This document shows, piece by piece, positions 7,601 through 35,780 of a stretch of DNA of 64,000 bases. The DNA comes from Cenococcum geophilum (taxonomy: Eukaryota). A program made the position numbers and the translations under genes. The notes beneath the pieces are model-generated. The model was given only the letters and a program-made list of their open reading frames with translations. It had not been told where the DNA came from and ran no database searches. Each line of letters starts with the position of its first letter. The first letter of the stretch is position 1. Location: contig CP158635.1 in NCBI GenBank assembly GCA_050273025.1, forward strand, positions 8,184,001 to 8,248,000. Reading direction: 5' to 3'.

Positions 7601-10598
7601 GTATATTTAAATTGGCCAAAGCGCGATATAAATACGGTTTTTTATTTATTACCTTCCCGTATTTAGAGATAGTTAAAGGGGGCGATAATATTAAGCTTAG
7701 TATAGATTTTGGCTTAACTAAGCCGCTTAAGGGTTTTACGTATAAGTAGTACTAGGTATTAGTTTTTAATTGTAATAGCATTAAGTCCTCTATAGTTAAT
7801 ATAGAATTAAATACCTCTTTTTAGCTTCTTAGTAAGAAGAATAGGGGCGGCTGTTAGTAATATACTGAGATAAATAAATCCTTTATTAAGGTACTTGTTA
7901 ATATAATTTTTTATAACTAAAAGTTCGTCTTTTAATATTAGGTAGGGTCTTTTATAAAATAGCATTTTTCCTTATTTAATATTAATGGTATAGTTATTAG
8001 GTTAATATAGGGGGAGTATATTTACGCTCTTTTATAAGCATATATTAGTAAAGTTATAGTACCTCTTAGGGAGAAGCTTACGGAGTTCTTTATTAGTAAG
8101 TCCTTTTTTAAGCTTTATAAACTTCTTAAAGTCTAAAGGTAAAAGTCTATAGAGTTCCGTAGGGGCGTTATCTTCTAAAAGGTTAACTATATCTATCCTA
8201 TTACTATAGAGGATATAGTCCTATTCTTTATTAAGCTTATATAGTTATAATTAGGAAGCTATAGTAATGGTTTAGCCTTTTTTATATACTATATAGTAGA
8301 AGGCCGGGGCACTTATATAGTAGTAGTTAGTCATAGGTAGAGTAATAAGGGGTTCCTTAGGTTAATATTTTAGGAAGTAAATAGAGGCGGCTAGGCTATG
8401 CCCTAGGCAAGTCTCTCTATAGTATTTAGAGTTAAAGGTTACTTTTTTCTTCTTTTAGTTAATGGCGGGGTTATATTATTTAAGCTAGTTTATTCTAAGG
8501 ATAATAGGGTAGTTAGTAAGTAGTATAATATAGGCCTAGAGTTCTTCCTAGTGCCTATTTATATCTAGGTGGAGTTATACTATATAGGTAATCTTTTATA
8601 TAGTATAATTACCGTTAGCGAGTTATAGGGCGCGGGCTTTAGTAAGAGGTAAGGTAGGTAGGTTATAAGTATATACAAATTAGGTATCTATAAATTTATT
8701 AATAGCTCTATAATTAATTATAGAACGGCTTTTATATTATTTTTTAGTAGTAGTTCCTATTATAGGTAAAACTATCTATTTCCGTCTATTTATTTTTATA
8801 GAGTTATCTATTAAGTAAGCTAATATATAGATCCCTTTATCGTTAGGGCGTCCTAACCTGTAACTTAGGGCTAGGACTTAGCGTTTTCCGTTTCCATATT
8901 TAACTCTACCGCTATTACTATATCTTCGTCTTATACGGTAGTAGTATATAATAATATATTTAATATTTAGGGTATTAGGTTAGGTATTAGGCGGCAGCTA
9001 CTAAACCTAGCTATTAGGTAGTTTAGGTTATCGCAATAATAGCCTTCTTAACGGCATTTATAGTAGTGTCCTAGTTTCTAAAGTAGCTCGCGCTCTCTAT
9101 TTAGGAGTTTTTATAGGAAGGTTAGTATAGAGAAATTAATATTAGTTCTAGTAGTACTTAAAGTAATAGGTGTCAGTGGCTTAGTATATATAGGTTTAGT
9201 AGGCCCAAGGGGCTTCTATAAAGAGATCTTTAGGTAAAAGTTAGTAGTAGTAATCTAATTTAGTTATTGTTTAATCTTCTATAGAGCTGCTACTATATTA
9301 TAAATATTATTATAGTTATAGCTAGCGGCTGCGTAACTAAGGCGATAAGTAACTTTTTTAAGGAGGTCCTTTTAGTCTTTAATATCGTCTTAGGTAAGAG
9401 CTCTAGTATATTCCTAGAATTTAATATAGAATTTATTAAATAATTCGGTAGGGCTTATCTTTAGGACATGTAGTTTAGCTTAGTTAGTAGCCAGTAGGTT
9501 ATAGTTACGGTATATTAGATTAAGATTATTAAGGACTTCTTAGTAGGACTGCCACTTCTAGGGGCTATTAGTCTCCTATTAGGTAAAGAGTCTATTAAAC
9601 AGTATACCATTTATTCACCTAATAATGTAGCTGATCTTAGTGTCTTTTGTAGGAAAAAGGCAGGCGCTTTAAGTTAGTTTCTCGCAGATATATATCTTCT
9701 AGTAGCTATATTCTTTACAATTTCCCTAAAAAACTAGGGGATTAAGGTAGCGTATATTAGACCCTATAGTAGCAGTTTAGGTCTAATTATTATAGCTTTC
9801 GTTATTACTGCTTTAGTAGGGGTTCCTATTAGGTAAAGCTACTTAGCGCTAGCCTTCTATTAAGTATTAAGTAGGTAAAGTTACTAGGGGCGTAAAAACT
9901 TAGGTAGCATTATATATAGTAAAGAGGTATCTAGCGTTATTACGAATATACTTATTAAGCTAAGATTATAGGTATTTAATTATGCCTTTTCTTTTAGTAA
10001 ATATAGTAATTAGTATAATCTTAGCCTTCTTTAACTGTTAGATGTCGCGTTTAGATATATAGAGGTTATCTTTAGTTTCTTAACGTATATTATTAGCGAG
10101 CGCCTTATAAGCTTATAGGTCTTAGATAATATCGCGATCTTAAGTAGTATATATCTTGGCTTATATAAGCTTTAAGTAGTAGTTTTATAAAAGGCGGTAG
10201 TATTTATTAGGGTTTTGTGCTACTATTTTTACAAACGTCTCGGCGTCTCGTATTTTAATTTTAATAAGTAGTAGCCCTTCTATTTGCTTGTCTATAGTTA
10301 TATAGTTAATAAAAAAATAAGATATTATTAGTGTCCGTCTCCTTAGGGGTTAAGGCTAAAGCTAATAAATTAAATTCTCCTAGGATTAATTGGCGTCGTA
10401 GGTTAAGTATAGGTATTAGATTGTTCTTTAGGTTTAATATAATAGCTAATAAGAGATATTATCTTACTATTATGGGTTCCTTAGAAGTATAAAGTAAGGT
10501 AGTTTATAGATACGCTGCTTTTAGCAGCACCTACAGTATTATAGAGACGTAGAATTGGTCATAGGCTAAGCGTTAGTGGTAAAAAAGGCGTAACGTAA

Positions 10599-10791
10599 TG
10601 TTATAGGACGGGGGCAGTGGCTATAAAGCGTATGTATTTAAGGAGTCTACAAGATATTACGCGATCGATCGTAAGGGTCAAGGGCGTAAGGAGGTAATAT
10701 ACCTACGCGTAGCTAATATAAGCTATACGTAAGGTGTACGCGAGAGCACGGGGCTCTCCTATAGAGGCCCCTGCGGTGGGGTTCCGTAACA
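10599..10791 (-). repeat. 5' LTR of B1
   Basis: TG...CA; direct repeat of 4427-4619. Confidence 0.95.
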
Positions 10792-11615
10792 CTAAAGTTA
10801 TATACTTAGGCCTAATTATATTCTATAACGGAATTGAAATAGACCCTAAGAAAATCGCTATAATTATAAACTAGGAAAGTTCTAGTAGTATATAAAATAT
10901 TTAAGGTTTTTTAGAATTTGCAAATTTCTATTATTAATTTATTAATTACTTCTTAAAAATTATTTAGCTATTAATAAACTTAATAAAAAAGAATATAAGA
11001 TTTAAATAGACTACTAAATATAAATAAGCTTTTAACGACCTAAAATATTATTTTATAACTGCTTTAATTCTTACTTACTTTAATCCGGACTTTAAATATA
11101 TTATTAAAACAGACTTGTCTAATTATATACTAGAAGGAGTATTATCACAATATAATAAAAATGGCGAGTTATACCTAATAGCCTTTTTTTCCCCGAAAAC
11201 TTACCTCTGCTAAATTAAACTATAAGATTTATAATAAGGAACTACTTATAATTATTAGGTATTTTAAATAATAGCGTCTAAAACTTAAAGGATTGTTATT
11301 TTTAATACGCGTATTAACGGACTATAAAAACCTATAGTACTTTATAACTATAAAGCAATTAATATAATATTAAATTTATTAGGCCAAACACCTCTTATAA
11401 TTTAACTTTAAGATTATACACTAACCTAGTAAACTTAATTAAAAGCCTAACTTATTAATATAATAATTATAGAACCTACCTACTAACGCCTCTAATAAAT
11501 GGATTATAAACCAATTACAAAATTTACTGCCCCTTAAATACTTTAAGAAACTACCCCCTATATTTTTAAATATAGAGCTTAATAGGAATAAATTGGAAAT
11601 TAATAAGTGGGATAT

Positions 11616-11862: not shown

Positions 11863-14080
11863 GATATAGAAATTAATAAATTAATAAAGTATAAATATAA
11901 AAATGACCCTTAGATAGTAGATATAATAAAAGCGATTTAAATAGGGAAATAGTAATATAAGGGTATTACACTTACCGAATGCGAAATCCGTAATAATCGG
12001 TTATACTATTAATAAAAGATAGTAATCCCAAATTCTAAACCCTTATAATTTATATATAATTCCCCTATAGTAGGGCATCCTAGCTATATAAAGACCTATA
12101 AGATTATCTAATAAGTATATTACTAGCTTATAATATATAACTATATATATAAATACGTTTAACTATATAGAATATGCGTATGCGGGAAGACCTCTTATAT
12201 AAAGAAGTAAGGAGTACTTTAACCGTTGCTAATTCTAATATAAAGATAGTAAAATATCTTAATTAACTTTATAGTTAACCTGCCTAATAGTAATAGGTTT
12301 ATAAATATTATAGTAGTTATTAACTATCTTATAAAAATACAATATATAATTCCTATAGACTTAATTAATGCAATATTAGTAGCCGAATGTTTTATTAAGT
12401 ACGTCTTTAAGCTATATAGACTTCTTAATTTAATAATATCCAACCGCGAAAGCTAGTTTATTTTAGACTTTTAGTAAGCCTTATATAAATAATTAAGTAT
12501 ATAAATATAACTCTAACTATATTTTATTTAGAAATAGATAGTTAAACTAAAATTGACAACGTAATTATAGAATAATACCTATAAATATACTGCTCCTACC
12601 TATAAGATAACTAGAAAAAGTGGCTACTTTTAGCTAAGTTTACTGCGAATAATATAAAAAACGAATTAATAGGCGTAACGCTATTCTATACAACCTACGG
12701 ATAAAACCCTTAACTTAGATTTAAACTATAACCTAAAATTAATATAATAGGACCTATAATTAAGAGGATTTAACTAATTAATATATATAACTTTGTTAAT
12801 TAAATAAAGTAGTTAACGGAACTATTATAAAGTAAATTAGCGTACGCTTAAATAGTATAAGAATAGTATATAAATAAAGAATAAGCTCCCGCGTGGGACT
12901 TTAAGGAAGATAATATAGTTTACCTAAATATATAAAACCTAAAGACTTAATAACCCTTAAAGAAACTTAATTGGAAGTTTATGGGCCTATACTAAATTAA
13001 AAAGAGACTAAGCCTATATGCTTATAAGCTTAAACTACTAACTAAGATAAAAATATATTTAGCGTTTTATATAAGCTTACTATAACCTTTAAAGAATAAA
13101 CCTATAACTTGGGAAGTACCGCTACTACTTCCTATAATTATTAACAATGGTAATAGTTCTTACTTTATTAACTTAATTAATAATATATTATAGAAAATAT
13201 AATCTAAATAATTTAAACTTCTTATTAAGTAGGAAGGATATAAAATATAAACTTAGGAAACCTATAACTAGATTAAGACTAACGCGCCTTCCCTAGTAAA
13301 AGAATTCTATAAAGACTATCCTTTGCGGCCTACTTTAGCTAAATAGATATAATATAAAGGTAAATAACTACTACCTAATATAAATATACAAAATATAATA
13401 GTAGGAAGCTTAAAATTAAAAAGAACTTAAAATACGTTATAATATTTATAATATAATTATATAATACGCAAGATATTAAGGAACTTTAACCGCCAGTTAA
13501 AGTTGTCTAATTAGTTAAATTTACCTTACCAAGACCTATTATAAGGATGCTAGTTTTACTTACCGCCTTAACTAAGCTAATAGCGATTTTTTATTCTAGG
13601 GATGGAAAATCCTAATTAGCCTATTTAATAATAAAATTAGTAAAACTCTATATATTATATTATGATATTTAATTACGCTATTGCGGCTCCCGTTAGGGTC
13701 CATATAGTGGGTCTATATGGGTCTATATATATATATGTATAAGAGGGGAACCGTACTGCTAGGGCCGGATAAAACCTCTCCTTCTCTTGTTATATGGCCT
13801 GTATAGCTTATTATACGGCCTATATAGCCTTTTTTCTAATTAGTGACTGCCAAGCACAAGTAGACGTCTCTTTAAGGCGCTACAGAAAAGCTATCTTAAT
13901 GCGTACTCCTAGGTCTATCCGGTAGGGTGTATAGCTAAAGCCTAGGTTCTGTTTCTAGCTGCTTTAGTTATCTAGGTAGGGCGTAGGCTAGTGGCCTATA
14001 AGGCTGGTAGTGGTGTATAAGGTTCCTTTATTTATATCTGCGTTAATATACGCAGCTTTATACCTTGCTAAGTTTTATTA

Positions 14081-14400
14081 AGTTTTATTAGGATATTAAC
14101 CTCTACCAAATTCTGCCCGGTTACTAAATTCTATTAAATTCTGCTAGGTTGCTAAAGTTCTGCCAACTTCTGTTAGGTTATTAGATTCTGCTAGGTTACT
14201 AAGATTCTACCAAATTCTATTAAGTTGCTAAAACTCTACCAAATTCTGTTAGGTTACTAAAATTCTACCAACTTCTATTAGGTTGTCCAATTCTGCTAAA
14301 TTCTACCAGGTTAATAAGTTCTGCTAAATTCTACTAGGTTGCTAAAGTTCTACCAACTTCTGCCAGGTTGCCATCTGTAAAATTCTGCTATATTCTACCA
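14081..14400. repeat. Degenerate tandem array of ~10/19-bp units (AAATTCTGCC / AGGTTGCC type) in LINE1 3' UTR
   Basis: Directly visible repeats such as aaattctgct, aaattctacc, aggttgct. Confidence 0.85.
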
Positions 14401-15419
14401 TCCCTACAGTATTTATCCTCCGCCTCTTAACGCACTTCCTAGCCTCCTCTCTTTACCCTAGCCAGCTCTCTAGCAAATAAAAGGTGTAGTAAGAGGTTTA
14501 TCTACATAAACCAGTCCGCAACTGCCTTAGTAGCCTTTAGCTTAGTTAGGAGCTCTTTATATAAGGATATTCCAGCACAGTAATATATTTCCGCCCGGCT
14601 AGCAGCGTGCCTAGGGCAGAACACCACTACGTACATTATTAATTGTTAGCTATAGCCGCATAGGCAGGCCGGAGTTAGGTACCCTAGTACTTTTTGGTAG
14701 TAGAGGTATCTGTTAAGCCCTATATACTCAGTTCTAAGCAGCGTATTAATTATACTCTCTACCCTTATAAGCCTTACGTGGCGTTTAAAGACTTCCTTAT
14801 TCTATAGCTTGGCCTAGGCCGTTATATAGTGGGTAAGCGTGCTCTAGTACTTTTCCTATTCCCTTTTCTACCGCTCCTTAAACGCCTTTTATACCCCAGC
14901 CCTTCTACTTCTCTTATACTGCGCTTTAGATAAGTCCATTGGCCGTATATCTATCCCTAAGATAGCGGCCGCTATCCTCTTAAGCTTATCCCATCTAGTG
15001 GGCCATATTAATGGCTTTATTCTAGGCCGGAGTTAGTAGGCTATTATGGCCCATATAGTGTTACACTCCCTCTTAATATACTTTCTTGCTGGTCCTTCCC
15101 GCGTTCTCTCCGCGTAGGCTATAGCTAGCTCTTTAAGGTGTATCTATAGCGGCGGAAACCCCGTCTCGTGCTCTAGTACTACTGTTAGCGTTAATTTATA
15201 CGCCCCCGCAATAGTGCGGAGGCATAGGTTCTATACTACACCCAGCTAGCATAGCTTAGTTTTGCTTATCTCCTTAGGCTTCGTCCACTCCAATAGCGAG
15301 TACTAGGTACTACATCTATATAAGATTGCCGGCCGGACCACGGCGGAGTATATTATCCGCGCCTTCTAGAAGGAGGCGCCCCATATAGAGGCCGTAAGCC
15401 GGGTTAATACGGCTATTTA
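14400..15419 (-). pseudogene. LINE1 ORF2 C-terminal fragment (post-RT region and CCHC zinc finger)
   Basis: De-RIP QMAALTRLTASTWGASFQKARMIYSAVVRPAISYG and LRTEHIGLNxYL..PACPCGYSRQSVxHVVVFCP. Confidence 0.85.
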
Positions 15420-17021
15420 GCAGGTAGTTATATATTAGCTAGTAGTGCTAGTAATATAGTAGAGTTTAACATACCTGCTTATCTAGGCCTCTACCCCAGT
15501 TTTCTAGTGCATTATCCCAGTCTATAAGTAGTTGGCTACTACCACCAATAACACGGGGAGTTTTACCAGTTCTTTTGGATATCTTATAGCTGGTCAGTCT
15601 GCCCCCCAGCAGTCTATATAAGAGTTTCCTCCCAGAGTTGGTACGCTTTCGCACGGCTTAGGAGCCTTCTATAGCCTCTGGTCTCACGCCTTTCTTTATT
15701 ATTTCCGCCGGTACGGGCATAAGCTGCCATTTCCAGGGGTCGCAACTCCCGTCTTACATACCTACTGGCGTAATCCTACGAGGGCGTCGTAGCTGCATCC
15801 TGCAATATGGAAGCCTTGGGTGCACCTTCTACAGTTAAGGCCAGCCAAACCTCTCCCGCCTAAGTAACTCCTGTTTGCTCCTTAAGCGTGCCTCACTAGC
15901 GTACTGCCCTAGCGAGCAGTCCTGTCTATTAGTACACCGACACGCGCATCCGTTTTTTCGAGCCACGTAGTAGTCTCTCCGGCCAGGACGTGATCCTACC
16001 TACCTACCAGGTGCACCAGGGGTCAGAGCCCAGTTAAGGGGTGAGGTCCCTAGAGCCAGCAGTGGCTACTACGTACTACGCCCCGCGGGAGGTTCCCGTT
16101 TCGCGTTGCCTGTAAGAGTCTCCTCATGACAGGCCGACCGTGTCTTGCAGGAGGGGGGCCGTAGAGACACCAGGTCCCGCACCAGACGACCTGCTCCCCC
16201 CCCTCCTACTAACCAAGCTTGTGTCCCCCCTTTTTATAAGCTGGCCTGTGTCTCTAACTATCGAGTCCTCGTCCAACTGGCCTGTGTTTCCTTAGAGCCT
16301 CCCCCATATAATACGCGTCAGGTTGCGTGCACCACGCCTATTAAGACCCTCCTGTGAGTCACCTGGTCGAACGCCATGGGGCCGTCGAAGCTGGCCTGTG
16401 TTTCCGCTGCCTAGAGCTTTGCCCGTGTTTCCACCTCGTTAAGCCGTCTGGTCGCCGTCGCGTCGCTATCACGTCGCTGTCGCGTCTGTCGTCCAGGTCG
16501 CGCGCACCACGCCTATTAAGACCCTCTTCTGAGTCACCTGGGTGTCGGATAGATAGGCCCTTGTAGAGGGGCCTTAACGAGTTCTCTAGGCAGGGCCTTA
16601 ACAAGTTCTTTGCGGTGGCCTTGGGGCCTTAACAAGTTTCGTACGAGGTATCTACGACGCGTTAACCTTAACAAGTTCTTATAAAAAGAGGTTCCCTACG
16701 CCCTCGCCGCATCCCTTTACGATCTCAGAGCTAGTGTAAGCCTAAGGGTGTCCTGTTATATGACTAGGACGCATCTACGTCAACTAGCTATAATAAGGCC
16801 AGTTTCGGGCCTGGCTATAAGCCAGGTAGTCGTATATCGGGTAGTTTTCGTATCCTAGTTTCCCTTAATAGGCCTCCCTAGGTGGTAGAGCAGGAGCCTC
16901 AAGCGGAGGCAGTAAGGCTTCTGGTGTTGTTGAGGGCGATGCGTACACGTCGCGAGCTCAACACCACAGAACCGCAGCGACAGCGCGCTACACGCGCTGC
17001 GACGGCTCTCTACCATCGCCT

Positions 17022-17106
17022 CTGCACTTGGCCATCAAAAGGAACGATTTCCTGATGATGTTTCCACCCGCGGCGACGTAGACGCGTACAGTAGGGCTTC
17101 GCGGGC
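17022..17106 (-). ncRNA. HDV-like self-cleaving ribozyme at the 5' end of element G, copy 1
   Basis: P1 GCCCGCG/CGCGGGT with first G.U wobble; P2 CTGYAC/GTGCAG; P3 GCG/CGC; L3 TCYACGT; P1.1 GG; P4 CATCA..AGGAA/TTCCT..TGATG; J4/2 GCCAA with the catalytic-C position at 17031. G1 abuts the TSD. Confidence 0.88.
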
Positions 17107-17211
17107 AGTAAAACTCTATACCGCTACCCAACGCAACTATATAAATATAATAAATAATAAGTCTTAACTAAATTAAATTATTTTAAACCTTTAGCTAAAA
17201 AGGGGGGGTAC

Positions 17212-20200
17212 TATAACGGGACTAGCCTAGTTATAGTAGGAACGTCTTAGTAAAACACTTAATAGATAAATTCTGTTATAGGACACCCCTATAATACCTT
17301 ATACACGCCTACCTACTTTTACTATCTACGAGATCGCAATTTGCCGCGACCTATAGCAATCTAACGGTAATCTGCTATATTCTGCTATATTCCACTAAGT
17401 CCTACTAAATTCTGCTAAATTCTGCTAAGTTTTACTAAATTCTGCTAAGTTCTGCTAGGACTATATCCTAAATCCTATTTTACTCCATGTACGTATTAAC
17501 TAAGCAACTAAGTTAACAATATATACCCTTTCTTCCCGTTTTCCTATCTTCTTTCCTTACGCAACGTCTTAACCTTATTACACAGTTTATATATATAGCT
17601 TAATAATATCTACTCTACTATATATTATCGTCGCTTATACTTACTCCGTAATACTATATTACGTTAAACCTACCTTATACTGCCCCGTCTAATATATAAA
17701 ACAACCTAAAAGCCCCTATATCTATAAAAGACCTATATACTATATTTACCGAATAAATAAAGACTCTATAATAGGCCTTTACGAACACCCTTGCCTATTA
17801 AGAAGCCCGATATTATAAGTTAATCAAATCTCTAAAAAAAGAAATTAAAGAGATCCGCTAAAACCCACTATCTACCCTACCGTTACCCCTACTCGCCGCT
17901 ACTAGTATTAACCTATAAACACTAGGTAGAGAGAATATATCTAAAACTAGCTCCTTAACCCCAAATTTGCTAACTAGTACCCCTAGAAAGAAGTTAACTA
18001 AACATCTCCCTAATCCTCCCGCCTATTTAGGTAATAGAAGTAAACTATACTCCTTCCTTAACCAACTTAAGAATAAGCTAAATAGTAATATTAATCGCTA
18101 CCTAACTCCTAATAACTAGTTGTGTTACGCTATAAGCCGCCTAATAGGAGACGCCGTAAAAACTATATACCTATTTCAGCTAAGCACTATAAAAAACTAG
18201 TCACTATACTAAAAGCATCTTACAGCAACCCTAACCAAATTATTATAGTATAAAGAAAACCAAATAAGATAATATAAGGCTCTAAGAGCTTTCTATTATA
18301 CTTTACTAAATTCTACTACTATATTAAAGAGACTAGATGGAACAAACCCGCCTTAATTAATTGCCTAGTAGAGTCCCTAAACTCCGAACTAAAGGCTTCC
18401 CTTATAAAAGTTAAGCTGCTAAATACCCTTACCGCCTGTGCTAATGTTATTAACGGCTTATATAACGATATACTACACCTTACCCTAAAACATATATCCT
18501 AATACTCCGCCCCCTAGCCGCCTAAGACTCGCAAGGATCCGGATACTATAGATATTGATACTAGAATACTAGAGTATACTCTACTAGGGTTCTTTAAATA
18601 AGAACAACGCATTAAGCTAGGCCTTTACTTTAAGTGCGGAAGTAAAGACTATATCTTAAGAAACTATTCCGTCCCTTTGCCTACGCCCTAAAACGATTTA
18701 TAAACGGCTAATTTTAGTAACTATCTACCGCGCCCAACCTTAAGTTATTACTTATAGCCTTCCTTATCCGGTTCCAGGCCTACGCCTAGTAAGCGCCACT
18801 TATAAGGACGAAGCTATAACTAATATACTACGAGAACTCCGCCCTAATTACCTATAAAAGGAAGGTTTTAGAGCTAAGTCGCTCTCTAGGATAACTCTAT
18901 CTTAGGATTTTATTAAATGCTTTAGATATTACAAACTCTAACTTTTAGGATTATAGCATAACCGTTAACTGCCGCCTTTAGCAGAATAATTAATAGGCTA
19001 ATGCTTAAGTCCTAATTAATACAGGAGCTAGTAGTATAGGATTTATTAATAAGATCTTCGCGTAAGATAATAGTTTTACCCTAAACCCCCTTAACCGGCA
19101 TATTAACGTATTTGGATTTAATAGTAAACGCATAGTCTTAGGCTAAATTACCTATATAGTATATCTAAGACTCTAATACCTAAATTACGAAGAACTAATT
19201 AGGCTTTTTATCATTACCCTAGGTTACCTAATAATCCTTAAATAACCCTAGATAAAGCTATATAAGGTAAATATTAATTAGGACAACCTTAAGCTTTTAT
19301 TTACCGCCTTATAATATAAGCTAGAATGCTCTATAACACACCGCTCTAACCCTAAACTAAAATCTAAGAAATCTACTAAGATCCACTAGCCTAAGATTTC
19401 TACCAATATCTACTCTACGCCTAAGGAATCTACCAGATTCTACTAGTATAGGAATTCTACCGAATTTTACTAATATAAGAAATCCACCGACATCTACTAA
19501 GGATCCGAAAATTCTGCTAAATTCTATAAGTTATTACTAAGCATTACACCGCCCTAAACTAAGTAAAAGCTTAAGCTTAGTATATAAAACTACTAAAAGA
19601 ACTAATACCCTATAATAAAAAGAATACTTAAAGAACCTAAACCTAAATCTAATACTAACTCTATACCTAATACTAAACCTAAACCTAAATAAGGAACTAT
19701 GGACAATCTAAGCAAGCTCGGCACCCTAAATATCCGCATAATTAAAGCTACTCTATTAGTATAACTTACTAAAAAACCTAAACATACAATCTTCGCTATT
19801 ACTATAGCTAATATTAAGAAGGCCTTAGCACTGAAAAAGTATACTAACCCTACCATAAAGGTACTAGTAGAGTATTATTATCGCCTAGATGCATTCTTAT
19901 AAAAGGAAGCTAATAAGCTACTAGAACACCGACTATACGACTATAAAATTATACTTAAAAAAGGAAAGTAGCCTAGATTTAGACCCTTATATAGGATATC
20001 CCAAAATAAACTCTAAGTACTATAAAAGTATTTAGACGAGAACCTAAGTAAAGGATTTATTAGAGTAAGCTCGTCGCCTATAGCCGTACTAGTAATCTTT
20101 ATTAAGAAACCTAGTAGCGGTTTACGCTTCTATATAGACTACTAAGCTTTTAATACTATTACTGTTAAGAACTAATATCTAATTCCATTAATATAAGAGA

Positions 20201-23200
20201 CGCTAAACTAACTAAGTAAGGCTCGTTACTACACAAAGCTCAATATTATCTCTGCATTTAACCGTCTCTATATTATAAAAGGAGATAAATAGCTTACTGC
20301 ATTTTATACCCAATATAGACTATTTAAGTACTTAGTAATACCATTTAGCCTTATAAACGCTCTAAGCTCGTTTTAATATTATATAAATAATACCCTATAT
20401 CCCTACCTAGACATTTTCTATACTGCTTATATTAATAATATCTTAATATATAGTAATAACCTAACTAAATATTAGAAATACGTTAACCTTATTCTATAAG
20501 CCCTATACGGAGCTAGTCTATAATTAGATATAGATAAATATAAATTTTATAAAACGGAAGTCCTATACCTTAGACTTTTTATTTTTATAAACGGTATATA
20601 AATAGACCTAAAGAAAGTCGAAGTAATTATAAACTAGTAAAAACCTAAGAACGTTAAGGACGTAAGAGCCTTTATAGGATTTGCTAATTGCTACTAACAG
20701 TTTATTAATAACTTCTCTGCCCTAGTTTTACCCCTTATAGCTCTAACCTAAAAGGATAAAGTTTTTATCTTTAATAAGGAATATAAGAAGGCCTTTACTT
20801 ATCTAAAGGTTATGTTTACTTCTACGCCCATACTTTAATACTTTAACCTAAACCGAATAAGTGTTATAGAAGCCGACTTATCTAACTATATTATTAGAAA
20901 CATCCTGTCTTAATATAACAAGGATAGAGTATTATACCCTATAGCATACTTTTTAAAATAACTAAGCCTAGCTAAATATAACTACAAGATCTATAATAAG
21001 GAATTATTAGCTATTATTAGATATTTTAAACAATGGCGACCTAAACTAGAAGGCGCTAGATTTCTAATTAAGGTCCTTAGTAACTATAAGAACTTATAGT
21101 ACTTTATAACTACAAAATAGCTATATTATTATTAGGCCCGCTAGTTAAAATATCTATCTTATTTCTAATTCTTAATTATATACTACTTAGGCGTTTAAGG
21201 TTAAAAGCCTAACGCCCTAACCCAACACTCGCAAGACGCGCCAGCCCTAAAAAAAGCGCGCTCTTACTAAAATTAGACCCTACTTTGCCCTAAACTATTT
21301 AACCCTCCTATTAAAGATCTTACGGTATACGTCCTTAAAATAACTAATTAATTAATTAAATAGATTATAGTTAATAAATACCCAAATAACAAGTTTATCT
21401 AAGAGACGCTTAAACTAATATAAGATAGCATTAGACGCTTTAAAAAGATTTCTCTAAATAAATGCGAAGCCTACGGAAACCGCTTATATTACTAGAACCG
21501 CCTAGTTATACCTAACTATAATAAACTTAAGCTTAAGCTCCTTAAATATATACACGATTTACTAGTAGCCAGCTACCTAGGCCAAGGAAAAACCCTAAAA
21601 CTGCTTTAATAAGAATACTATTAGCTAAATATATATAATATAATATAAAGGTATATCTCTAGCTACTATATCTGCTAACGAGCTAAAGCTTTATATAAGA
21701 TGTATAACGGCCTCCTAAAGCTACTGCCTATTCTAGACTAAAGATAGAAAGACATCTTAATTAACTTTATTATTAACCTCCTTATAAGTAAAGGCTATAT
21801 AAACATTATAGTAGTTATAGACTAACTATCTAAGATAAGGCAGTTAATCGCCTGCCATAATATATTAATGCCTACCGTCGCCTAACTGTTCCTAGATTAT
21901 ATATAAAAACTCTATAGACTCCCTAAAACGATTATCTCTAATAAAGGCAGCTAGTTTATCTCTATATTTTAGAAAGAACTAACTACCTAACTCCGCATTA
22001 AAGCACTACTATTTACTATATATTACCTAGAAATAGACGGTTAAATAGAACGTATAAACGCTATAATAAAACAGTATATCTAAATATACACGTTATATTT
22101 ATAAGATAACTAGATTAACTGGCTTATATTTACCAAGTTTACTATAAATAATTTCATCTCGGAAACTATAAAGGTCTCCCTATTCCTAGCTAATTATGGC
22201 TAGCACCTATAAATAGGTTTTAAACCTTTTAGTAATATTCCTTGCCCCGCTTATTATACTTTATAAGTTATAAAAGTAAATAAATTTATAGAGAAGATAG
22301 AGGAACTATAACGGTTCCTTACTAATAAAATAATATGGGCCCAATCTATCTATAAAGCCGCAGCGAATAAAAAACAAACCCTAGCACTAGCCTACTAAAT
22401 TAGTAACTTTGTTTGGCTAGATATAAGAAACCTAAATATAAAATAACCTACTAAAAAACTTAATTAGAAAAACGCTGCCCTTATAAGATTAAGAAGGTTG
22501 TTTCCTTTTACGCCTACTAACTAAAGCTCCCTAATACGGTTAAAATCCACCCCGTATTCTATACGTTAGTCCTTTACCCTACTACCCCTATATTAGACGC
22601 CCTGCCTAGATAGATATAAGACCCTCCCCTACTAGTTAAAATAGATAGTAAAAATAAGTACTTTATTAAAAGAATTAATAATATTAAGTATAATAAACGG
22701 AAACGCTAATATATATATCTTACAAAATAGAGAGGCTTTATTAAGCCCTTATAGGAACCCGTTAACTCTATAGGACTTATATAAGCCGTAAAAGACTTTT
22801 ACAAACTCTACCTAGAACTACTATAGCCCTACCTCGCAGAAGCTTAATTTTAAAGGGGGGTACTATTATAGAACACTCCCGTAACACTTTATACACGCCT
22901 ACCTACTTCTACCGTCTATAAGACTGCAATTTGCCGCGACCTATAGCAATCTAACGGTAATATACTATATTCTGCTATATTCCACTAAGTCCTACTAAAT
23001 TCTACTAAATTCTGTTAAGTTCTACTAAATTCTGCTAAGTTCTGCTAGAACCACGTCCTAAATCCTATTCTACTCTATATATATATTAACTAAGCAACCA
23101 AGTTAACGGTATATACCCTTTTTTCCCATTTTCCTACCTTCTTTCCTTACGCAACGTCTTAGCCTTATTATATAGTTTATGTATATAGCTTAATAATATC

Positions 23201-27647: not shown

Positions 27648-27733
27648 GCCGGCGAAGCCCTACTGCACGCGTCCACGTCGCCGCAGGTGGAAACATCATC
27701 AGGAAATCGTTTTCTTTTGATGGTCAAGTGCAG
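27648..27733 (+). ncRNA. HDV-like ribozyme at the 5' end of G, copy 2 (catalytic C changed to T at 27724; one P1 mismatch)
   Basis: GCCGGCG-AAGCCCTA-CTGCAC-GCG-TCCACGT-CGC-CGCAGGT-GG-P4-GTCAA-GTGCAG. Confidence 0.85.
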
Positions 27734-28614
27734 AGGCGATGGTAGGGAGCCGTCGCAGCGCGTGCAGCACGCTGTCGTCGCGGTTCTGTGGTGTTGAGCT
27801 CGCGACGCGTACTATCAAAGCATCGCCCTCAACAACAGCAGGAGCCTTACTGCCTCCGCTTGAGGCTCCTGCTCTACCACCTAGGGAGGCCTATCAAGGG
27901 ATACTAGGATACGAAAACCACCCGATATACGACTACCTGGCTCGTAGCCAGGCCCGAAACTGGCCTTATCATCAGCTAGTCAACGTGGACGCGCCCTAGC
28001 CGTACAACAGGACACCCTTAGGCTTGCACTAGCTCTAAGATCGCAAGACAAGGGCGTAAGGAAACCCTTTTTTATAAGAACTTGTTAAGGTTAACGCGTC
28101 GTAAATACCTCGTATAAAACTTGTTAAGGCCCTACCTAGAGAACTTATTAAGGCCCCTCTACGAGAGCCTATCCGGTACATCCAGGAGACTTAGAAGAGG
28201 GTCTTAATAGGCGTAGTGCGCGCGACCTAGACGAGACAGTGTTGCGATAGCGACGTGACAGCGGCTAGATGGCTTAACGAGGTAGAAACACGGGCAAAGC
28301 TCTAGGTAGCGGAAATACAGGCTAGCTTCGACGGCCCTATGGCGTTCGACCTACGGTCGACCTACAGGTGACTTATAGGAGGGTCTTAATAGGCGTAGTG
28401 TATATAACCTAATGTATATATATAAGGCGACTTATAGGAGGGTCTTAATAGGCGTAGTGTACGCAACCTAGTATATATATATATAGGGGAGGTCTTAAAG
28501 AAAACACAGGCCAGTTAAATAAGGTCTTAACAGTTAGAAATATAGGCTAGCTTATAAAAAGGGGGGGACATAAGCTTAGTTAGTAGGAGAGAAGGGAGTA
28601 GGTTACCTAGTACG

Positions 28615-31600
28615 TGTCACGGGACGGGGGCAGTGGCTACAAAGCGTATGTATTTGAGGAGTCTACAAGACGTTACGCGATCGATCGTAAGGGTTGAGGG
28701 CGTAAGGAGGTAATATACCTACGCGTAGCTGACATAAGCTATACGCGAGGTATACGCGAGAGCACGGGGCTCTCCTATAGAGGCCCCTGCGGTGGGGTTC
28801 CGTGACACTACCCCCCCTCTTATAGAGGCGGAGCTCCGGCGACGCTGTGGTTACTATATATATATAGAAGAAACACTTAAGGTATAGAAAAGAAGAAAAG
28901 GGGGGTATCGCTAAAGGCTTAAAATAATGTTATATAATAGGGCTTAGTATCTAAGAATCTAACCAATTAGATAACTTTAACCGCCGGTTAAAGTTCCTAG
29001 ATATCTTAACGATATTCTAGTCACGTAATCGCACTTTACCATAATCTGACGGCAATTTAATAGCAATTTGCCCTTATGTGGTAATATATAACGGTTTAAC
29101 TCTATAAGGGCTCCTATAGAGGATTAGGTATAAAGTCTCTACTTAGGCCCGGTTTCTATAGGTTCGCGTAGTAAAAGTTACTAATTAGATCCTTTGCATT
29201 TTTAAAGTCTTCCTATAGTTGCCATTCTAGCTAATCTATATTAAATCCTGTGTATATAGCTCTGTAGTAGAGCCGTCGTCCTCTGCCTTTACTAAAGTAT
29301 TTAGAGTTAATAATTCGTTTAACGGTCTACTCCTTATGGTTCTTATCTTTGTTCTTATCTTAGATTAGTACTAGTAGGGGTTTAGGCTATATCTGCCCTA
29401 ATAAGGGGTTAGGCTAATAGAGATATAGTAGCTATAGGTAAAATATAGGCTATATTCCGCGGGTGGCTAGGGCAGGTAGGAGTTCTAGCTTATATACGGC
29501 TCCCCTATTAATAACTCATTTAATTAGATAGGGGCTAAGGTTCTTATAATTAAGTGACTTTATAGGCCTTTACGTAAAGATATTATGTATATCTAGCTAT
29601 ACCTAGTCGCCAACATGCATCTCCGGTGGTGGCGTTCTATAACGGTCGGCGAAGTAGGCCTACTTTACTTAAGCCTAGGCCATTTCTCCCTTACAGTAGT
29701 TAAGTAGATTTTTTATATGGTCTGCATACTAGTCGGTAAATAGCATCTTAAGGCGTTTTCTATATGGCAGTTTCTTATTAATAGGTTCTGGTGGCTCTAT
29801 ACTAGATTAGGGGTAATAACCCTTATTCGCAAAGAATGGGGTAAGTCCTATAGTAGTTAAGACGTGGTTATTCGCTGCGAATTCACCTAGTAGGAGGTAA
29901 TCCACCCAGTTATCTTAACTATAGGCGACTACCTGTTATAGGTACGCTTTTATACTGGTATTAGCGTTTTCTAGTTACCTAGTAGTTTTATAGTAAAAGG
30001 ATATAGACATCTTAACGGAGATGCTAAGGCGTTAGTAGATTCGTCTCTATATATTGGAGTTAAATTATATGCCTTGGTCGGACGTAATTAAGTTAAGTAA
30101 CCTATATAGTCGGTAAACTTTGCGGAGAAAGGCGTTAGTAACGTCGCTAACGGCTACGCCTTTGGTTAGGACGTAGTGGCGCTCTTTTATAAGTCGGCAT
30201 ATTATTATAAGGATGTTCTTATAGGTACGGCCGTGTTATTTATAGGGTAGTAGGTTAACAATGAAATCTATAGCAATATCTGCCTATCGTTATATAGGTA
30301 TTAATAGAGGGTATAGTAGTCCTTGGTACTTTATATTAAAGGCCTTAGCGCACTTATAACCGTAGTAGGCGCCTATAAAGCGTTTAACTAAGTCTATTAT
30401 TTTTGGCTAGAAGTAGTATTAGCTAAAAAGCTTATAGGTTCCTTCTCTACCTAGGTGGCCGCTTAATCAGAGGTTGTAGGCCATTTAGATTAGTTGCCGT
30501 TATAGATTTTCTAAGTTAGGGATAAATAGGTGGCCTCTATAATAGAGCCTGTTCTCTTTTACTTCTAAGGCTGCTATATTAATCTAGCCTAAGCTTTAAA
30601 GGTTAGTAGGCAGCGTATAGGCGCTAGCGGTCTTTACGGTAATAAGTTAATGCAGTAATAGGTCGGCAGAGGCGTTATATGCTATAGTAATAAGCTCGTT
30701 AATTTTGGGAGGTAATTCTAGTTCTGTGGTATAAAGCTGGGGTATAGTTGGCTCTATTATAGGTAGTATACCTAGGGCCAAATTTCGTATTTTTAGAATC
30801 GTTTATTGTTAGAACTAATTATAGGGGTTATCTTTAAACTAAGGAAGGTCTTGCGAGCGGCGTGTTAGGCTATTAGGTTTAGTACCTTATACTCCTAGTC
30901 TATATGTAATTTTAAAGTTAAAACCAGAGAGGAACTCGTTCTAACGTGCTTAGCGTTAGTTTAGCTACTTTGTGGTTATAAAGTACTTAAGGTTACAATA
31001 GTCCGTAAGAACTTTAGTTGGCTAGTTAGGCTCTACTAAGGAGAGTTCTGGTTAAAATTCTTTAAACGCTCGTATAATTATAAGGAGTTCTTTATTATAG
31101 ATCTTGTAGTTACACTCTTATAGTATAAGCTTAGACGAGTAGAATATAACTAGGTAAAGGAGACCGTTATTACCTATTTGGGAAAGGATGCCTGCGTTAA
31201 CGTGGTCTAAGGAGTTAGTTTTAAGGTAAAGTTATTGTCCTAGTGTAAAGTAAGCTAGGACAGGTGCTTTAGTAAAGGCATTTTTAAGGTCTTGGAACGC
31301 CTTCTCGCATTTAGGCGTTTAGGTAAAGCGTAGGTACGTTTTTCTTCCTTTTGCAGAAAGGCCCTTTATTTGTATTATTGCTATAAGTGGTGCTACTACG
31401 CCTAAGAAGTTATATATGAATTTCTAATAGAAGTTGGCGAAACTAAGGAAGGCTTATACGTCCTTAATGCAGTTAAGGGCTTGCTATTTAGTAATTATGC
31501 GTACCTTCTTAGGGTCTATATAGACACCCTTAGTAGTAATAATTAGTCTAAGGTATTTTACTTCTGTAACTAAGAATTTATATTTCTTTAAATTAATATA

Positions 31601-34600
31601 AAGTCCTACGTCCCTAAGGCGCTGTAGGACCTTTTAAACGTGTTTAGTATGCTTAGAGGGGTTATCGCTATAAATAAGTATGTTATCTAGGTACGCGGAG
31701 TAGAAGTCGTTAAAGTAGTCCCATAAGGCGTTATTAATATAGCTTTAGAAGGTGCCTAGGCCGTTATATACGCCAAAGGGTATAATAGTATATTTAAATT
31801 GGCCGAAGCGCAATGCGAATGCGGTTTTTTATTTATTACCTTCCTATATTTAGAGGTGGTTAAAGGCGGCAATAATATTAAGCTTAGTATAGATTTTAGC
31901 TTAACTAAGCCGCTTAAGGGTCTCACGTATAAGCGGTACTGGGTATTAGTTTTTAATTATAATAGCGTTAAGTCCTCTGTAGTTAATATAGAATCGGATA
32001 CCTCCTTCTAGCTTCTTAGCGAGAAGGATAGGGGCGGCTGCTGGTAATATACTAGGACGAATGAATCCTTTATTAAGGTGCTTGTTGATATACTTTTTTA
32101 TAACTAAAAGCTCGTCTTTTAACATTAGGTAGGGTCTCTTATAAGATAGCATTTTTCCTTATTTAATGTTAATAGTATAGTTATTAGGTTAATATAGGGG
32201 GAGTATATCTACGCTCTTTTATAAGCATATATCGGTAAAGTCGTAGTACCTCTTAGGGAGGAGCTTGCGGAGTTCTTTATTGGTAAGTCCTTTTTTAAGC
32301 TTTATAAACTTCTTAAAGTCTAAAGGTAAAAGTCCGTAGAGTTCTATAGGGGCGTCGTCTTCTAGAAGGTTAACTATATCTATCCTATTACTATAGAGGA
32401 CGTAGTCCTATTCTTTATTAAGCTTATATAGTTATAATTAAAAAGCTATAACAACGGTTTAGCCTTTCTTATGTGCTATGTAGTAGAAGGCTAGGGCACT
32501 TATATAGTGGTAGTTAGTTATAGGTAGGGTAATAAGGGGTTCCTTAGGTTAATATCCTAGGGAGTAAATAGAGGTGGCTAGGCCATGCCCTAGGCAAGTC
32601 TCTTTATAGTATTTAGAGTTAAAGGTTACTTTTCTCTTCTTCTAGTTAATAGCGGGGTTGTATTATTTAAGCTAGTTCATTTTAAGGATAATAGGGTAGT
32701 TAGTAAGTAGTATTATATAGGCCTAGAGTTCTTCCTAGTGCCCATTTATATCTAGGTAAAGTTGTGCCATATAGGTAATCTTCTATGCGGTATAATTACT
32801 ATTAGCGAGTTATAGGGCGCGGGCTTTAGTAAGGGGTAAGGTAGGTAGGTTATAAGTGCGTATAAATTAGGTATCTATAAATTTATTAGTAGCTCTACAA
32901 TTAATTATAGAACGGCTTTTGTATTATTTTTTAGCAGTAGTTCCTATTATAGGTAAAACTATCTATTTCCGTCTATTTATCTTTATAGAGTTATTTATTA
33001 AGTAAGCCGATATATAGATCCCTTTATTATTAGGGCGTCTTAACCCACGACTTAGGGCTAGGACTTAGCGTTTTTCATTTCCTTATCTAACTCTACTGCT
33101 ATTACTGTGTCTTTGTCTTATATGGTAATAGCGTATAGCAATATATTTAGTGTTTGGGGTATTAGGCTAGGTATTAGGCGGCAGCTACTAAACCTAGCCA
33201 TTAGGCAGTTTAGGTTATCGCAATAATAGTCTTCTTAACGGCATTTATAGCAGCGTCCTAGTTTCTGGAGTAGCTCGCGCTCTCTATCTAGGAGTTTTTA
33301 TGGGAAGGTTAGTATAGAGAAATCGATATTGGTTCCGGTAGTACTTAAAGTAGTAGGCGTCGGTGGCTTAGTATATATAGGTTTAGTAGGCCCAGGGGGC
33401 TTCTATAGAGAGGTCTTTAGGTAAGGGTTAGCAGTAGCTATTTAATTTAGTCGTCGTTCGATCTTCTATAGAGCTGCTACTATATTATAAATATTGTTAT
33501 AGTTATAGCTAGCGGCTGCGTAACTAAGGCGATAAGTAACTTTTTTAAGGAGGTCCTTTTGGTCTTTAGTATTATCTTAGGCAAGGGCTCCGGTGTATTC
33601 CTAGAATTTAACATAGAATTCGTTAAATAATTTAGTAGGGCTTATTTTTAGGGTATATAGTTTAGCTCGGTTAGTAGCTAATAGGTCGTAGTTGCGGTAT
33701 ATTAGGTTAAAATCGTTAAGGACTTCTTAGTAGGACTGCTACTTCTGGGGGCCACTAGTCTCCTATTAGGCGAAGAGTCTATTAAACAGTATACCCTTTA
33801 TTCGCCTAATAATATAGCCAATCTTAATGTCTTCTATAGAAAAAAGGCAGGCGCTCTAAGTTAGTTTCTTACGGATTTATATCTTCTAGTAGCTGTATTC
33901 CTTACGGTCTCCCTAAAAGACTAGGGGATTAGGGTAGCGTGCATTAGACCCTACGGTGGTAGTTTAGGTCCAATTATTATAGCTTTCGTTATTACTACTT
34001 TAGTAGGGGTTCCTATTAGGTAAAGCTGCTTAGCGCTAGCCCTCTATTAAGCGTTAAGTAGGTAAAGTTACTAGGGGCGTAGAGACTTAGGTGGCGTTAT
34101 ATATAGTAAAGAGGTATCTAGCGTTGTTACGAATATGCTTATTAAGCTAAGATTATAGGTATTTAATTATGCCTTCTCTTTTAGTAACTATAGCAATTAG
34201 TGCAATCTTAGCCTTCTTTAACTGTTAGACGTCGCGTTTAGACACATAGAGGTTATCTTTAGTTTCTTATTATATATTATTAGCGAGCGCCTCACAAGCT
34301 TATAGGTCTTGGATAATATCGTGATCTTAGGTAGTACGTATCTTAGCTTATATAAGCTTTAGGTAATAGTTCTATAAAAGGCGGTAGTATTTATTAGGGT
34401 CTTATGCTACCATTTTTGCAAACGTCTCGGCGTCTTATATTCCGATTTTAATAGGTAGTAGCCCTTCCGTTTGCTTATCCGTAGTTATATAGTTAATAAA
34501 AGATAAGATATTATTAATGCCCGTCTCCTTAGAGGTTAAGGCTAGGGCTAATAAATCAAATTCTCCTGGGATTGATTAGCGTCGTAGGTTAGGTATAGGT

Positions 34601-34977
34601 ATTAGATTGTTCTTTAGGTTTAATATAGTAGCTAATAAGGGATATCGTCTTACTATCGTGGGTTCCTTAAAAGTATAAAGTAAGGTAATTCGTAGACACG
34701 CTACTTCTAGCAGCGCCTGCAGTATTGCAGAGACGTAGAATTAGTTATAGGCTAAGCGTTAGTGGTAAAAAAGGCGCAACGTAATGTTACGGGACGGGGG
34801 TAGTAGCTATAAAGCGTATGTATTCGAGGAGTCTACAAGACGTTGCGCGATCGATCGTAAGGGTCAAGGGCGTAAGGAGGTGATATACCTACGCGTAGCT
34901 GACATAAGCTATACGCGAGGTGTACGCGAGAGCACGGGGCTCTCCTATAGAGGCCCCTGCGGTGGGGTTCCGTAATA
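28615..34977 (-). mobile_element. Ty3/gypsy chromovirus B, copy 2, full length (6363 bp), RIP-inactivated
   Basis: 193-bp LTRs at 28615-28807 and 34785-34977; collinear with 4427-10791; flanking duplication TACG; ORF 31946-32152 is a surviving RT fragment. Confidence 0.96.
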
Positions 34978-35780
34978 TACGGGACCTAGCGTCTCCATAG
35001 CCCCCTCCTATAAGATATAGTCGGCCTATTATAAGGAAACTCTTACAGGCAACGCGAAACGGGAACCTCCTATAGGGTATAATGCGTAATATTTACTGCT
35101 GGCTCTAGGGACCTTACCCTTTAGTTAAGCTCTAACCCCTAGTGCACCTAGTAGGTAAGTAGGATTATATCCTAGTTAGAGAGACTACTATACGGCTTAA
35201 GAGAATGGATACGCGTATTAGTGCACTAATAGACGGGACTACTCGCTCGCTAGGGTAGTACGCCGGTAAGGTACGCTTAAGGAGTAAATAGGAGTTACTT
35301 AGGCGGGAGAGGTTTTAGCTAGGCCTTAACCATAAAAGGTATACCTAAGGCTTTTTACATTATAGGATGCAGCTATAACACCCTTATAAAATTACGCTAG
35401 TAGGCGCGTAAGACGGGAGTTACAACCCCTATAAATGGCAGCTTATACCCACGCTAGCGGAAATAATAAAAAAAAGCGTAAAACTAGAGGTTATAGAAGG
35501 CTCTTAAGCCGTATAAAAGCGTACTAACTCTAGGAGGAAACTCTTATATAGACCGCTAGGGGGCGGACTAGTACTTAGGCTAATAACCTATTATAAGATA
35601 TCTAAAAAAACTAGTAAGAACCCCTATATTATTAGTGGTAGCAGCTAACTGCTTATAGAAAGCCCCTTTAGGGCTAAGGGCCTAGAGGTTTAAGATCGTT
35701 ACTAAAAAACTAGGGTAGAGGCCTAGATAAGTAGGTATATTAAACTCTACTATATTACTAGCTAATATATAACTACCTGC

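Follow-up and report, generated by a model that had tools for sequence, protein, structure and literature searches.

A non-coding RNA module with a predicted HDV-like ribozyme at its first base, joined to LINE fragments in Cenococcum geophilum

The DNA considered here is a stretch of 64,000 nt from Cenococcum geophilum (GenBank assembly GCA_050273025.1, contig CP158635.1, positions 8,184,001 to 8,248,000 of the forward strand), referred to below as the window, and all coordinates are those of the window unless a locus is named. It contains two copies of a non-coding repeat unit, termed G, which begins to the base with a fold of the hepatitis delta virus (HDV) ribozyme type and which is followed directly by a second part, termed H, that is related or presumed to be related to long interspersed nuclear elements (LINEs). 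It is proposed that transcription enters G from upstream and that the ribozyme, lying in the first 88 nt, would cut immediately 5' of the first base (G1), making the 5' end of a structured RNA of 1.4-1.8 kb that would be uncapped and would have a fixed 3' end without poly(A). In the course of target-primed reverse transcription, the reverse transcriptase (RT) of a LINE encoding endonuclease (EN), RT and RNase H would jump from its own partly copied RNA to the 3' end of G, and complementary DNA would be copied through to G1, the last base of G to be reached. The product would consist of complete G, 5'-truncated LINE and tail, within a target-site duplication (TSD) of 13-15 bp that lies flush with the ribozyme. 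Each new site would regenerate the whole ribozyme, so that any transcript reading in from upstream could again be trimmed to G1 without a promoter belonging to the element. We put the probability of this scheme as a whole (ribozyme cut, template switch and regenerated ends) at roughly 0.78. A wider proposal is held more tentatively, namely that G is a new kind of non-autonomous retroelement: a genome-encoded structured RNA, without promoter or LINE-like tail, that would act as a preferred template-switch acceptor and whose 5' HDV-like ribozyme would re-create its first base.

An initial annotation of this locus had stated that all parts of an HDV-like double pseudoknot can be paired, and explicit pairing from 17106 to 17019 bears this out. 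It had named no strand; the motif is on the minus strand and is read from 17106 downward. The end given at that time, 17022, takes in six of the nine P2 pairs and has to be extended, as the 3' strand of P2 runs on to 17019. The helix order P1-P2-P3-P3'-P1'-P1.1-P4-P2' is satisfied within the first 88 nt of the repeat, and copy 1 reads, in order, GCCCGCG, AAGC, CCT-A-CTGTAC, GCG, TCTACGT, CGC, CGCGGGT, GG, AAA, the 28-nt P4, GCCAA and GTGCAGAGG (Table 1). P1 is formed by 7 bp (17106-17100 with 17072-17066), including a G1.U41 wobble (G17106/T17066), and 98.2% of its cells are paired across the 89 distinct rows of the family alignment described below. P2 has 9 bp (17095-17093 and 17091-17086 with 17027-17019) around the bulged A17092, and is absent from the RF00094 structure line in the Rfam alignment; in copy 1 a C-to-T change at 17088 leaves a U.G wobble in this helix. 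P1.1 joins positions 17081-17080 of the L3 loop to GG at 17065-17064. L3 had been quoted as TCCACGT, which is wrong for copy 1 (TCTACGT) and is instead how copy 2 and the family consensus read; the difference is a C-to-T change at 17080 that weakens one P1.1 pair to U.G. P4 is the part of the motif that varies most between subfamilies, and its loop differs in another subfamily. The catalytic role of C17031, in the junction J4/2, is presumed from its position, by analogy with C75 of HDV.

With RF00094 and RF02682 (F. prausnitzii), the motif shares the helix order, the G1.U pair, a GC P3 of 3 bp, an L3 starting with UCC, GG after P1, and G-C-N-A-A before P2'. Unlike these families, it has a longer P2 (9 bp plus a bulge), AAA as J1.1/4 and a P4 with an internal loop, and it scores 26-30.5 bits against cut-offs of 50 and 44. 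Judged by sequence, G is a unit that fits the structural definition of an HDV-like ribozyme, fails the Rfam cut-offs, and is not a coding retrotransposon. The motif is probably a genuine HDV-like ribozyme in a new setting, and it is from the fold that we infer catalysis.

Several analyses bear on whether the fold is more than a chance arrangement. A family of 89 loci was retrieved from metagenome contigs with a 35-nt R/Y-degenerate pattern taken from inside the motif. A descriptor was then applied that required G1.U plus six P1 pairs, a Watson-Crick P3 of 3 bp, an L3 of 6-8 nt, a CC/GG P1.1, a P4 whose stem has 4 bp or more, C-N-R-A, and, adjoining P3, a P2 of 5 bp or more. On both strands of the loci (648,360 nt) it gave 69 matches, 68 of them exactly at G1, so that G1 is found in 68 of the 89 copies; the single other match lies 10 nt upstream of G1 in locus L024. 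The strict descriptor had no match in the window, because copy 1 carries the C-to-T change in P1.1 and copy 2 is broken, and with a wobble allowed in P1.1 position 17106 is the only match on either strand. No match occurred in 60 dinucleotide-shuffled windows or in 400 shuffles of a GC-rich G unit of 1500 nt. The densities published for two RNArobo HDV descriptors, 7 hits in about 98 Mb and 11 hits in about 2.1 Gb, point the same way (PMC4870747).

In a check with covariance models (here those of Rfam), of the kind suggested by the initial annotation, RF00094 matches 17108-17015 end to end at 26.0 bits, below the cut-off of 50. In a scan of 16500-17600 by E-value, this family ranked top of 4227, with model positions 1 to 89 covered and an E-value of 0.23, which by our own division corresponds to about 5e-5 for one family in that 1.1 kb. 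Less mutated copies scored 29.0-30.5 bits with RF00094 in five of the eight loci scanned, again against 50, and RF02682 reached 29.3 bits in L089, where its cut-off is 44. In an alignment of 91 sequences (A1), with pairing counted over 89 distinct rows and 2935 cells, 93.0% of the cells pair in the named structure, compared with 36-56% when the partners are slid by 1-3 columns. The family consensus has perfect P1, P3 and P1.1, a P2 of 9 bp, an L3 of the form U-C-C-N-C-G-N, and a J4/2 of the form G-C-N-A-A. The closing pair that contains G1 (columns 6-46) is G.U in 82 of the 89 rows, A-U in six and other in one. P1.1 pair 31-48 is C-G in every one of the 89 rows, and pair 32-47 is C-G in 85 and U.G in the remaining four, window copy 1 included. 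At the presumed catalytic position, 88 of 89 metagenome copies have C, and L040 and window copy 2 have T. J4/2 reads GC(C/T)AA across the family, and the C/T variation falls on the base next to the catalytic C, a position that we take to be free in HDV-like ribozymes. Together with this base, the changes that distinguish subfamilies within the motif affect the internal loop and the loop of P4 and introduce P4 wobbles (A-U to G.U and G-C to G.U). P4 appears in all nested minimum free energy (MFE) folds.

The start of the fold is also the start of the insertion. In copy 1, as had been claimed, G1 directly adjoins a TSD, an exact duplication of 14 nt, which inclusion of the G/A transition at 17121/13653 extends to 15 nt. 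This single TSD (17120-17107 and 13652-13639) brackets G plus H. Sequencing runs are referred to here by code (X1, X15, X16, X21) and come from fungi, roots and soil; among the DNA contigs of run X1 are empty-site paralogues, which join ~13625-13652 to ~17108-17173. Because of these joints, and because the TSD brackets the whole span, the 3454 nt from 17106 to 13653 must have been inserted in one piece. Sequence common to window copies 1 and 2 extends only from 17106 to 15420, and copy 2 begins at the same G (27648, plus strand), in agreement with the initial annotation. That annotation had named scattered starts as a result that would speak against a ribozyme; starts are not scattered, as 88 of the 89 metagenome copies (81 with G, six with A and one with T) and both window copies begin at G1. 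The exception is L037, in which the first ~17 nt are replaced. Upstream flanks differ in all 89 copies, with a mean pairwise identity of 0.32 over 30 nt, which is about the level expected from composition, and in the 30 nt downstream from G1 the corresponding value is 0.97. Further TSDs flush with G1 are found in L054 (15 nt, exact), L006 (15 nt) and L003 (13 nt); in total, 13 of 40 loci have TSD candidates, the other ten (10-13 nt) being weak. A second copy in L036, found by BLAST independently of the retrieval pattern (oriented 1294 onward), starts within 2 nt of G1.

The two window copies carry different lesions, as had been noted: wobble-forming transitions in copy 1, and a P1 mismatch, changes in P4 and a T at the catalytic position (27724, also as claimed) in copy 2. 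The idea that an intact version could be rebuilt from these two copies is sound in that their lesions differ, but intact natural copies exist, and rebuilding a consensus is therefore not needed. An Rfam scan of copy 2 returned no HDV match at E <= 10. The only candidate TSD for copy 2, a match of 12-13 nt at 37726 with transitions tolerated, is within another repeat and was not accepted.

G as a whole is non-coding. With three frames of G plus H read through with X, no Pfam match was found, and no frame longer than 107 aa was found on either strand of ten less-mutated copies (GC 0.53-0.57). In eight full less mutated copies, no known RNA family was detected inside G (Rfam E <= 0.5), and the four matches obtained in that scan are miRNA-like palindromes in the flank of L029. 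A Gly/Arg/Ser/Thr-rich frame of 86 aa, at nt ~830-851 of G, is open in all ten copies listed (90 aa at nt 789 in L054); as a coding frame it was rejected, being read as a composition effect. The 3' end is constant: of 52 copies with 1400 nt or more of downstream sequence, 40 stop at ...TATATAACTACCTGC. No poly(A) lies between this end (...TAACTACCTGC in the window) and the LINE part, and most H parts begin with C; a terminator or a second ribozyme was not found at the G 3' end. The length of G ranges from ~1.43 to 1.82 kb and varies through internal repeats, and part of this range is due to the varying number of an internal repeat of ~50 nt (16311-16366 and 16494-16541). Compared with the window copy, 87 reads of run X21 (82 with the first mate on the plus strand and 5 on the minus strand) carry an extra repeat unit, with a joint from 16364 to 16311. 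The G RNA folds more stably than its shuffles, for example at -606.8 compared with -552.6 +/- 10.7 kcal/mol (z -5.05; L056, oriented 2472-3970), and this fold is not rod-like, as 13 of 503 pairs span more than half of the molecule. A MAFFT alignment of 47 full copies contained too many gaps to yield per-site rates.

The initial annotation had placed G beside the R2, RTE and L1Tc retrotransposons. G is not a self-contained retrotransposon of that kind, since it has no long frame, has a fixed 3' end, and is joined in its various copies to differently 5'-truncated LINE pieces. RT, EN and RNase H domains are confined to the variably truncated H parts: Exo_endo_phos_2 in L073 (7.3e-10) and L029 (4.1e-7), RVT_1 in L033 (3.3e-21), and RNase_H in L002 (2.4e-6) and L018 (5.8e-4). 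The H parts form nested series, in which those of L002, L048 and L024 start at 117, 408 and 438 within that of L044, and those of L059, L073 and L068 begin 572-615 nt into that of L029. On account of these domains and nested starts, H parts are considered to be pieces of an APE-type LINE truncated at many points. The H part of window copy 1 has a weak match (72%) to the RT region of the H part of L033. Degenerate tandem repeats are present in it at 14065-14400 on the minus strand, with units such as CAGAATTTGGTAGAACTTTAGCAACCTAG, and short stretches related to them are present at 17379-17459 and 22969-23048. The 3' ends to which G is joined are of two or three kinds at least: L006 and L054 have ...GACGTTAA.CAA.GA... 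in common, L003 ends in an A-rich run, and the window copy ends in ...TAATTAAATATCATAATATAA. As these ends differ, G may have been picked up by more than one LINE lineage.

Altogether, the enzymes come from the LINE and G looks like a passenger picked up by template switching, and it is from this architecture that we infer template switching as the joining step. The architectural features of MINE elements (described below) are present, namely a full-length RNA with constant ends on the 5' side, a variably truncated LINE on the 3' side, and direct joining in the same orientation. One TSD surrounds the whole chimera in the window, L003, L006 and L054. Junctions are shared between different loci (L029 and L056; L034 and L067) whose G parts belong to different subfamilies. 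Retrotransposition of chimeras as units was considered on this account and is not established, as junction hot-spots explain the shared junctions equally well.

RNA is made from G. In runs X21, X15 and X16, RNA depth is largely confined to the G span of copy 1, and two small fungal metatranscriptome runs, taken as contigs, have the same footprint. In the stranded raw data of X21, depth is confined to ~15334-17167, that is, to G without H, with stray reads at a mean depth of at most 0.4 in four other bins with the first mate on the plus strand. In the peak bin, depth with the first mate on the plus strand is 107.8, against 7.06, which indicates RNA of the minus (sense) strand, provided that the library follows the usual type. 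The 427 aligned X21 reads comprise 0, 36, 206 and 185 with identities of at least 99%, 95-99%, 90-95% and below 90%, respectively. Changes in both directions are seen, with A>G at 63 places and T>C at 49, C>T (90) and G>A (76) being commoner. The reads are only 80-99% alike to the window, and the RNA therefore derives from other copies that differ from it by transitions in both directions; G-length transcripts come from other, less mutated copies. One X15 RNA-library contig passes 17106 and reaches at least 45 nt upstream, where it matches the upstream flank of L076, which is free of repeat-induced point mutation (RIP); at least some transcription therefore starts upstream of G1. Among the loci, L076 alone has a flank that is GC-rich and unique, and its G1 lies ~510 nt from a divergently oriented kinase-like gene (L076:1960-2470). 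This locus may be a master locus and the X15 contig an unprocessed precursor; G may be released from read-through transcripts, as the initial annotation proposed. An upstream motif of ~28 nt with a GGCC...GGCC hairpin, possibly part of a leader, is common to L076 and the RNA-library contig, which comes from another run, and is 20 nt closer to G1 in the contig.

A number of results weigh against an active ribozyme at G1, and some of them would suit a different explanation, in which G1 is a transcription start set by an internal or upstream promoter, the fold is fortuitous or inactive, and LINE RT copies the primary transcript to its 5' end. Within the window, copy 1 is damaged by its two wobble-forming transitions, and the ribozyme of copy 2, to judge from its lesions, is certainly dead. 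The descriptor was written after the candidate had been seen and is not a published one. The retrieval pattern spans nt 30-64, so that copies truncated beyond nt 30 were not retrievable, and because it covers those nucleotides their conservation is partly a matter of selection. Rfam scores are mostly at least 20 bits under the curated cut-offs, the gathering criterion is failed, and a gathering-threshold scan of the whole window gave 0 matches. Shuffles give the same mean pairing as the real alignment (93.0%). Covariation, which the initial annotation had set as a test, is not seen in A1, where the copies are ~97% alike; the alignment has one double-changed pair (in P2 of L016), a number equalled in 301 of 500 shuffles, and this test is without power, owing to the uniformity of the family. 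For the 90-nt motif, nested MFE folds are unremarkable (z -0.7 to -1.4), and in the MFE folds of intact copies P2 and P4 are accompanied by an alternative UCCAC/GUGGA hairpin that replaces P1. In an alignment of reads to 3.9 kb, no pile of read starts or ends was listed at 17106, where depth is ~2, and neither cleavage nor a 5'-OH end was seen at G1. The lack of covariation, the Rfam scores, the nested folds and the lack of direct cleavage evidence in the reads all count in favour of a transcription start, and a promoter at this place is plausible because the first 77 nt of L1Tc are promoter and ribozyme both (PMC3185411). A promoter would account less well for a complete motif, including the P2 and P1.1 that are not in the Rfam structure line, which arises in none of the 60 shuffled windows and 400 shuffled G units and stands at nt 1 of the element, to the base. 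Moreover, the X15 contig extends into a leader common with L076, and J4/2 varies (C/T) at the one position presumed free, with the catalytic C retained in all but one of the metagenome copies. A transcription start at G1 is on balance unlikely.

It could also be thought that G is the true 5' untranslated region (UTR) of an autonomous LINE whose copies are internally deleted, as the known ribozymes of autonomous elements such as R2, RTE, baggins and L1Tc all lie in their own 5' UTRs (PMC6765202, PMC3185411). The longest H parts (L029 and L056) do begin upstream of the EN domain, and no locus extends far enough to show the 5' end of the LINE. The breakpoints are hard to reconcile with such deletions: the left one is constant (...CCTGC, in 40 of 52), whereas the right ones are many, from upstream of EN to ~200 nt from the tail, and the 3' ends or tails joined to G are of at least two or three kinds. 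There is no poly(A) or LINE 5' sequence between G and H, and although 5' truncation is the rule for LINE copies, 88 of 89 have G complete. We consider this origin very improbable. Less probable still, to the point of being barely credible, is that G is the reverse-transcribed unit-length monomer of a deltavirus-like or viroid-like circular RNA replicon, with both ends made by one ribozyme cut. G has sharp ends without poly(A), HDV is close to 1.4-1.8 kb in length, and the best Rfam family is that of HDV itself; the structure of G far beyond that of its shuffles (z -5.05) and the very high depth in small fungal metatranscriptome runs would be in keeping with it. However, the fold of G, with its 13 long-span pairs of 503, is not that of a rod, its frames do not exceed 107 aa on either strand of the ten less-mutated copies, and no second ribozyme was detected by Rfam (E <= 0.5, eight full copies) or by the descriptor on the antisense strand. 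The sequence upstream of G1 in the RNA contig is the genomic leader of L076 and not the 3' end of G, and no 3'-to-5' junction is present among the 15 joints listed out of 45. Ribozyme cleavage at G1 followed by template switching is thus the reading that we prefer.

This reading connects two kinds of known elements. The 5' HDV-like ribozyme of L1Tc in Trypanosoma cruzi (L1TcRz), which NARTc also carries, cleaves at +1 (PMC3185411). Its supposed role is to release the element from read-through RNA, leaving an uncapped 5'-OH (PMC3185411, PMC6765202). As in these elements, and in ingi/RIME, where the ribozyme takes up the first ~77-90 nt with its cut at +1 (PMC3185411, PMC6765202), the fold of G stands at the very start; and a ribozyme is likewise found on a non-coding, non-autonomous unit, L1Tc having its own in common with NARTc (PMC3185411). 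In contrast to G, the autonomous LINE bears the ribozyme in the L1Tc system, and cleavage has been shown in vitro there, whereas the ribozyme of G is predicted, belongs to a fungal host, and has been seen only on a non-coding RNA whose junctions with LINE pieces vary in position. In animals, R2, RTE and baggins are promoter-less elements without long terminal repeats (LTRs) that are co-transcribed with the host or a neighbour and freed by a 5' HDV-like ribozyme (PMC6765202). They resemble G in having many copies with conserved downstream and different upstream sequences (PMC6765202); unlike G, which lacks a long frame and depends on the enzymes of another element, they are protein-coding, and their ribozymes may also serve translation initiation.

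The other relative is MINE of Magnaporthe, which consists of a full-length WEIRD RNA and a 5'-truncated MGL LINE between direct repeats of 10-20 bp (PMC2104539). No solo WEIRD copies are reported, junction sites are preferred, and the arrangement has been ascribed to template switching by LINE RT (PMC2104539). For G, too, no solo copies were found and the junctions fall at preferred sites. The G unit has what is, as far as its arrangement goes, the architecture of these template-switch chimeras, with a full-length, abundant non-coding RNA at the 5' side joined directly and in the same orientation to a variably 5'-truncated LINE at the 3' side. The likeness is one of architecture. WEIRD is 1.1 kb long, and G is 1.4-1.8 kb and starts with an HDV-like fold. 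In the text of the MINE paper, the word 'ribozyme' occurs 0 times, and the origin, end formation and function of its 5' RNA module are left unexplained (PMC2104539). A literature search, confined to main texts, found no fungal retroelement or MINE-type module described as carrying an HDV-like ribozyme; the nearest precedent is a remark on unpublished compatible folds in Penicillium (PMC3185411).

The locus joins both topics, as it belongs to a MINE-like family, over 90 copies strong, in which the RNA module starts, to the base, with an HDV-like fold. If the ribozyme is active, it would explain the constant 5' end of such modules and why each new copy can be processed without a promoter, and the RNA that accepts the template switch would have a 5'-OH and no cap. 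If, in addition, G does represent a new kind of retroelement, the WEIRD-type RNAs of MINE may be ribozyme-headed parasites and not housekeeping RNAs. Natural intact and mutated copies (catalytic C to T, P1 mismatch, wobbles) constitute a ready panel for testing.

Table 1. Coordinates of the predicted ribozyme, the G and H parts, the target-site duplication and the interrupting element in the window
Feature	Coordinates	Strand	Basis or remarks
P1, 5' strand GCCCGCG	17100..17106	-	G1 = 17106, predicted first base after the cut
P2, 5' strand CCT, bulged A17092, CTGTAC	17086..17095	-	Helix 98.9% paired
P3 GCG/CGC (17085-17083 with 17075-17073) around L3 (17082-17076)	17073..17085	-	Pairing, alignment
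P1, 3' strand CGCGGGT (17072-17066), then GG (17065-17064)	17064..17072	-	Rfam alignment, pairing
P4 hairpin, 12 positions per strand, 2 x 2 internal loop, ATCG loop	17033..17060	-	Helix 82.9% paired
J4/2 GCCAA, presumed catalytic C = 17031	17028..17032	-	Pairing, family alignment
P2, 3' strand GTGCAGAGG	17019..17027	-	Pairing, alignment
TSD, 5' copy TATAGAGTTTTACT	17107..17120	-	Flush with G1; identical to 13652-13639 over 14 nt
G unit, copy 1 (1687 nt), RIP-mutated, end ...TAACTACCTGC	15420..17106	-	Non-coding RNA module
H part, copy 1, repeat-bearing, A/T-rich tail	13653..15419	-	Inserted together with G; presumed degraded LINE 3' part
TSD, 3' copy	13639..13652	-	14-nt exact match to TATAGAGTTTTACT at 17120-17107
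G unit, copy 2, 5' part, ribozyme disabled	27648..28603	+	P1 G.A mismatch 27651/27685, T at 27724, P4 changes
LTR-retrotransposon remnant inside copy 2	28604..34980	+	90% identical to 4427-10789
G unit, copy 2, 3' part, end ...TAACTACCTGC at 35780	34981..35780	+	A different, LINE-related H part follows

The window in which these copies lie is AT-rich, repeat-nested and marked by decay of the transition type, and only one stop-to-stop frame of at least 100 aa is present in its 64 kb. A Pfam scan of 143 stop-to-stop frames of at least 50 aa gave only scraps of RT_RNaseH_2 (at 11028-11210), a weak RVT_1 and DUF7025, and nothing in G. The DUF7025 fragment (59629-59823, minus strand, E 4e-11) is a gene remnant in a decayed region, and this domain is presumably a fungal one. 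The LTR-retrotransposon remnant that interrupts G copy 2, ~6.4 kb long with LTRs of ~206 nt, is one of two copies that are 90% identical, the other being at 4417-10794. Just downstream of G copy 2 lies a near-perfect palindrome (36074-36501) with arms of 197 nt that are 87% complementary and 34 nt apart. An array of 17-nt tandem repeats, AATCCCCTACTCTAATA-like, is found at 57158-57520.

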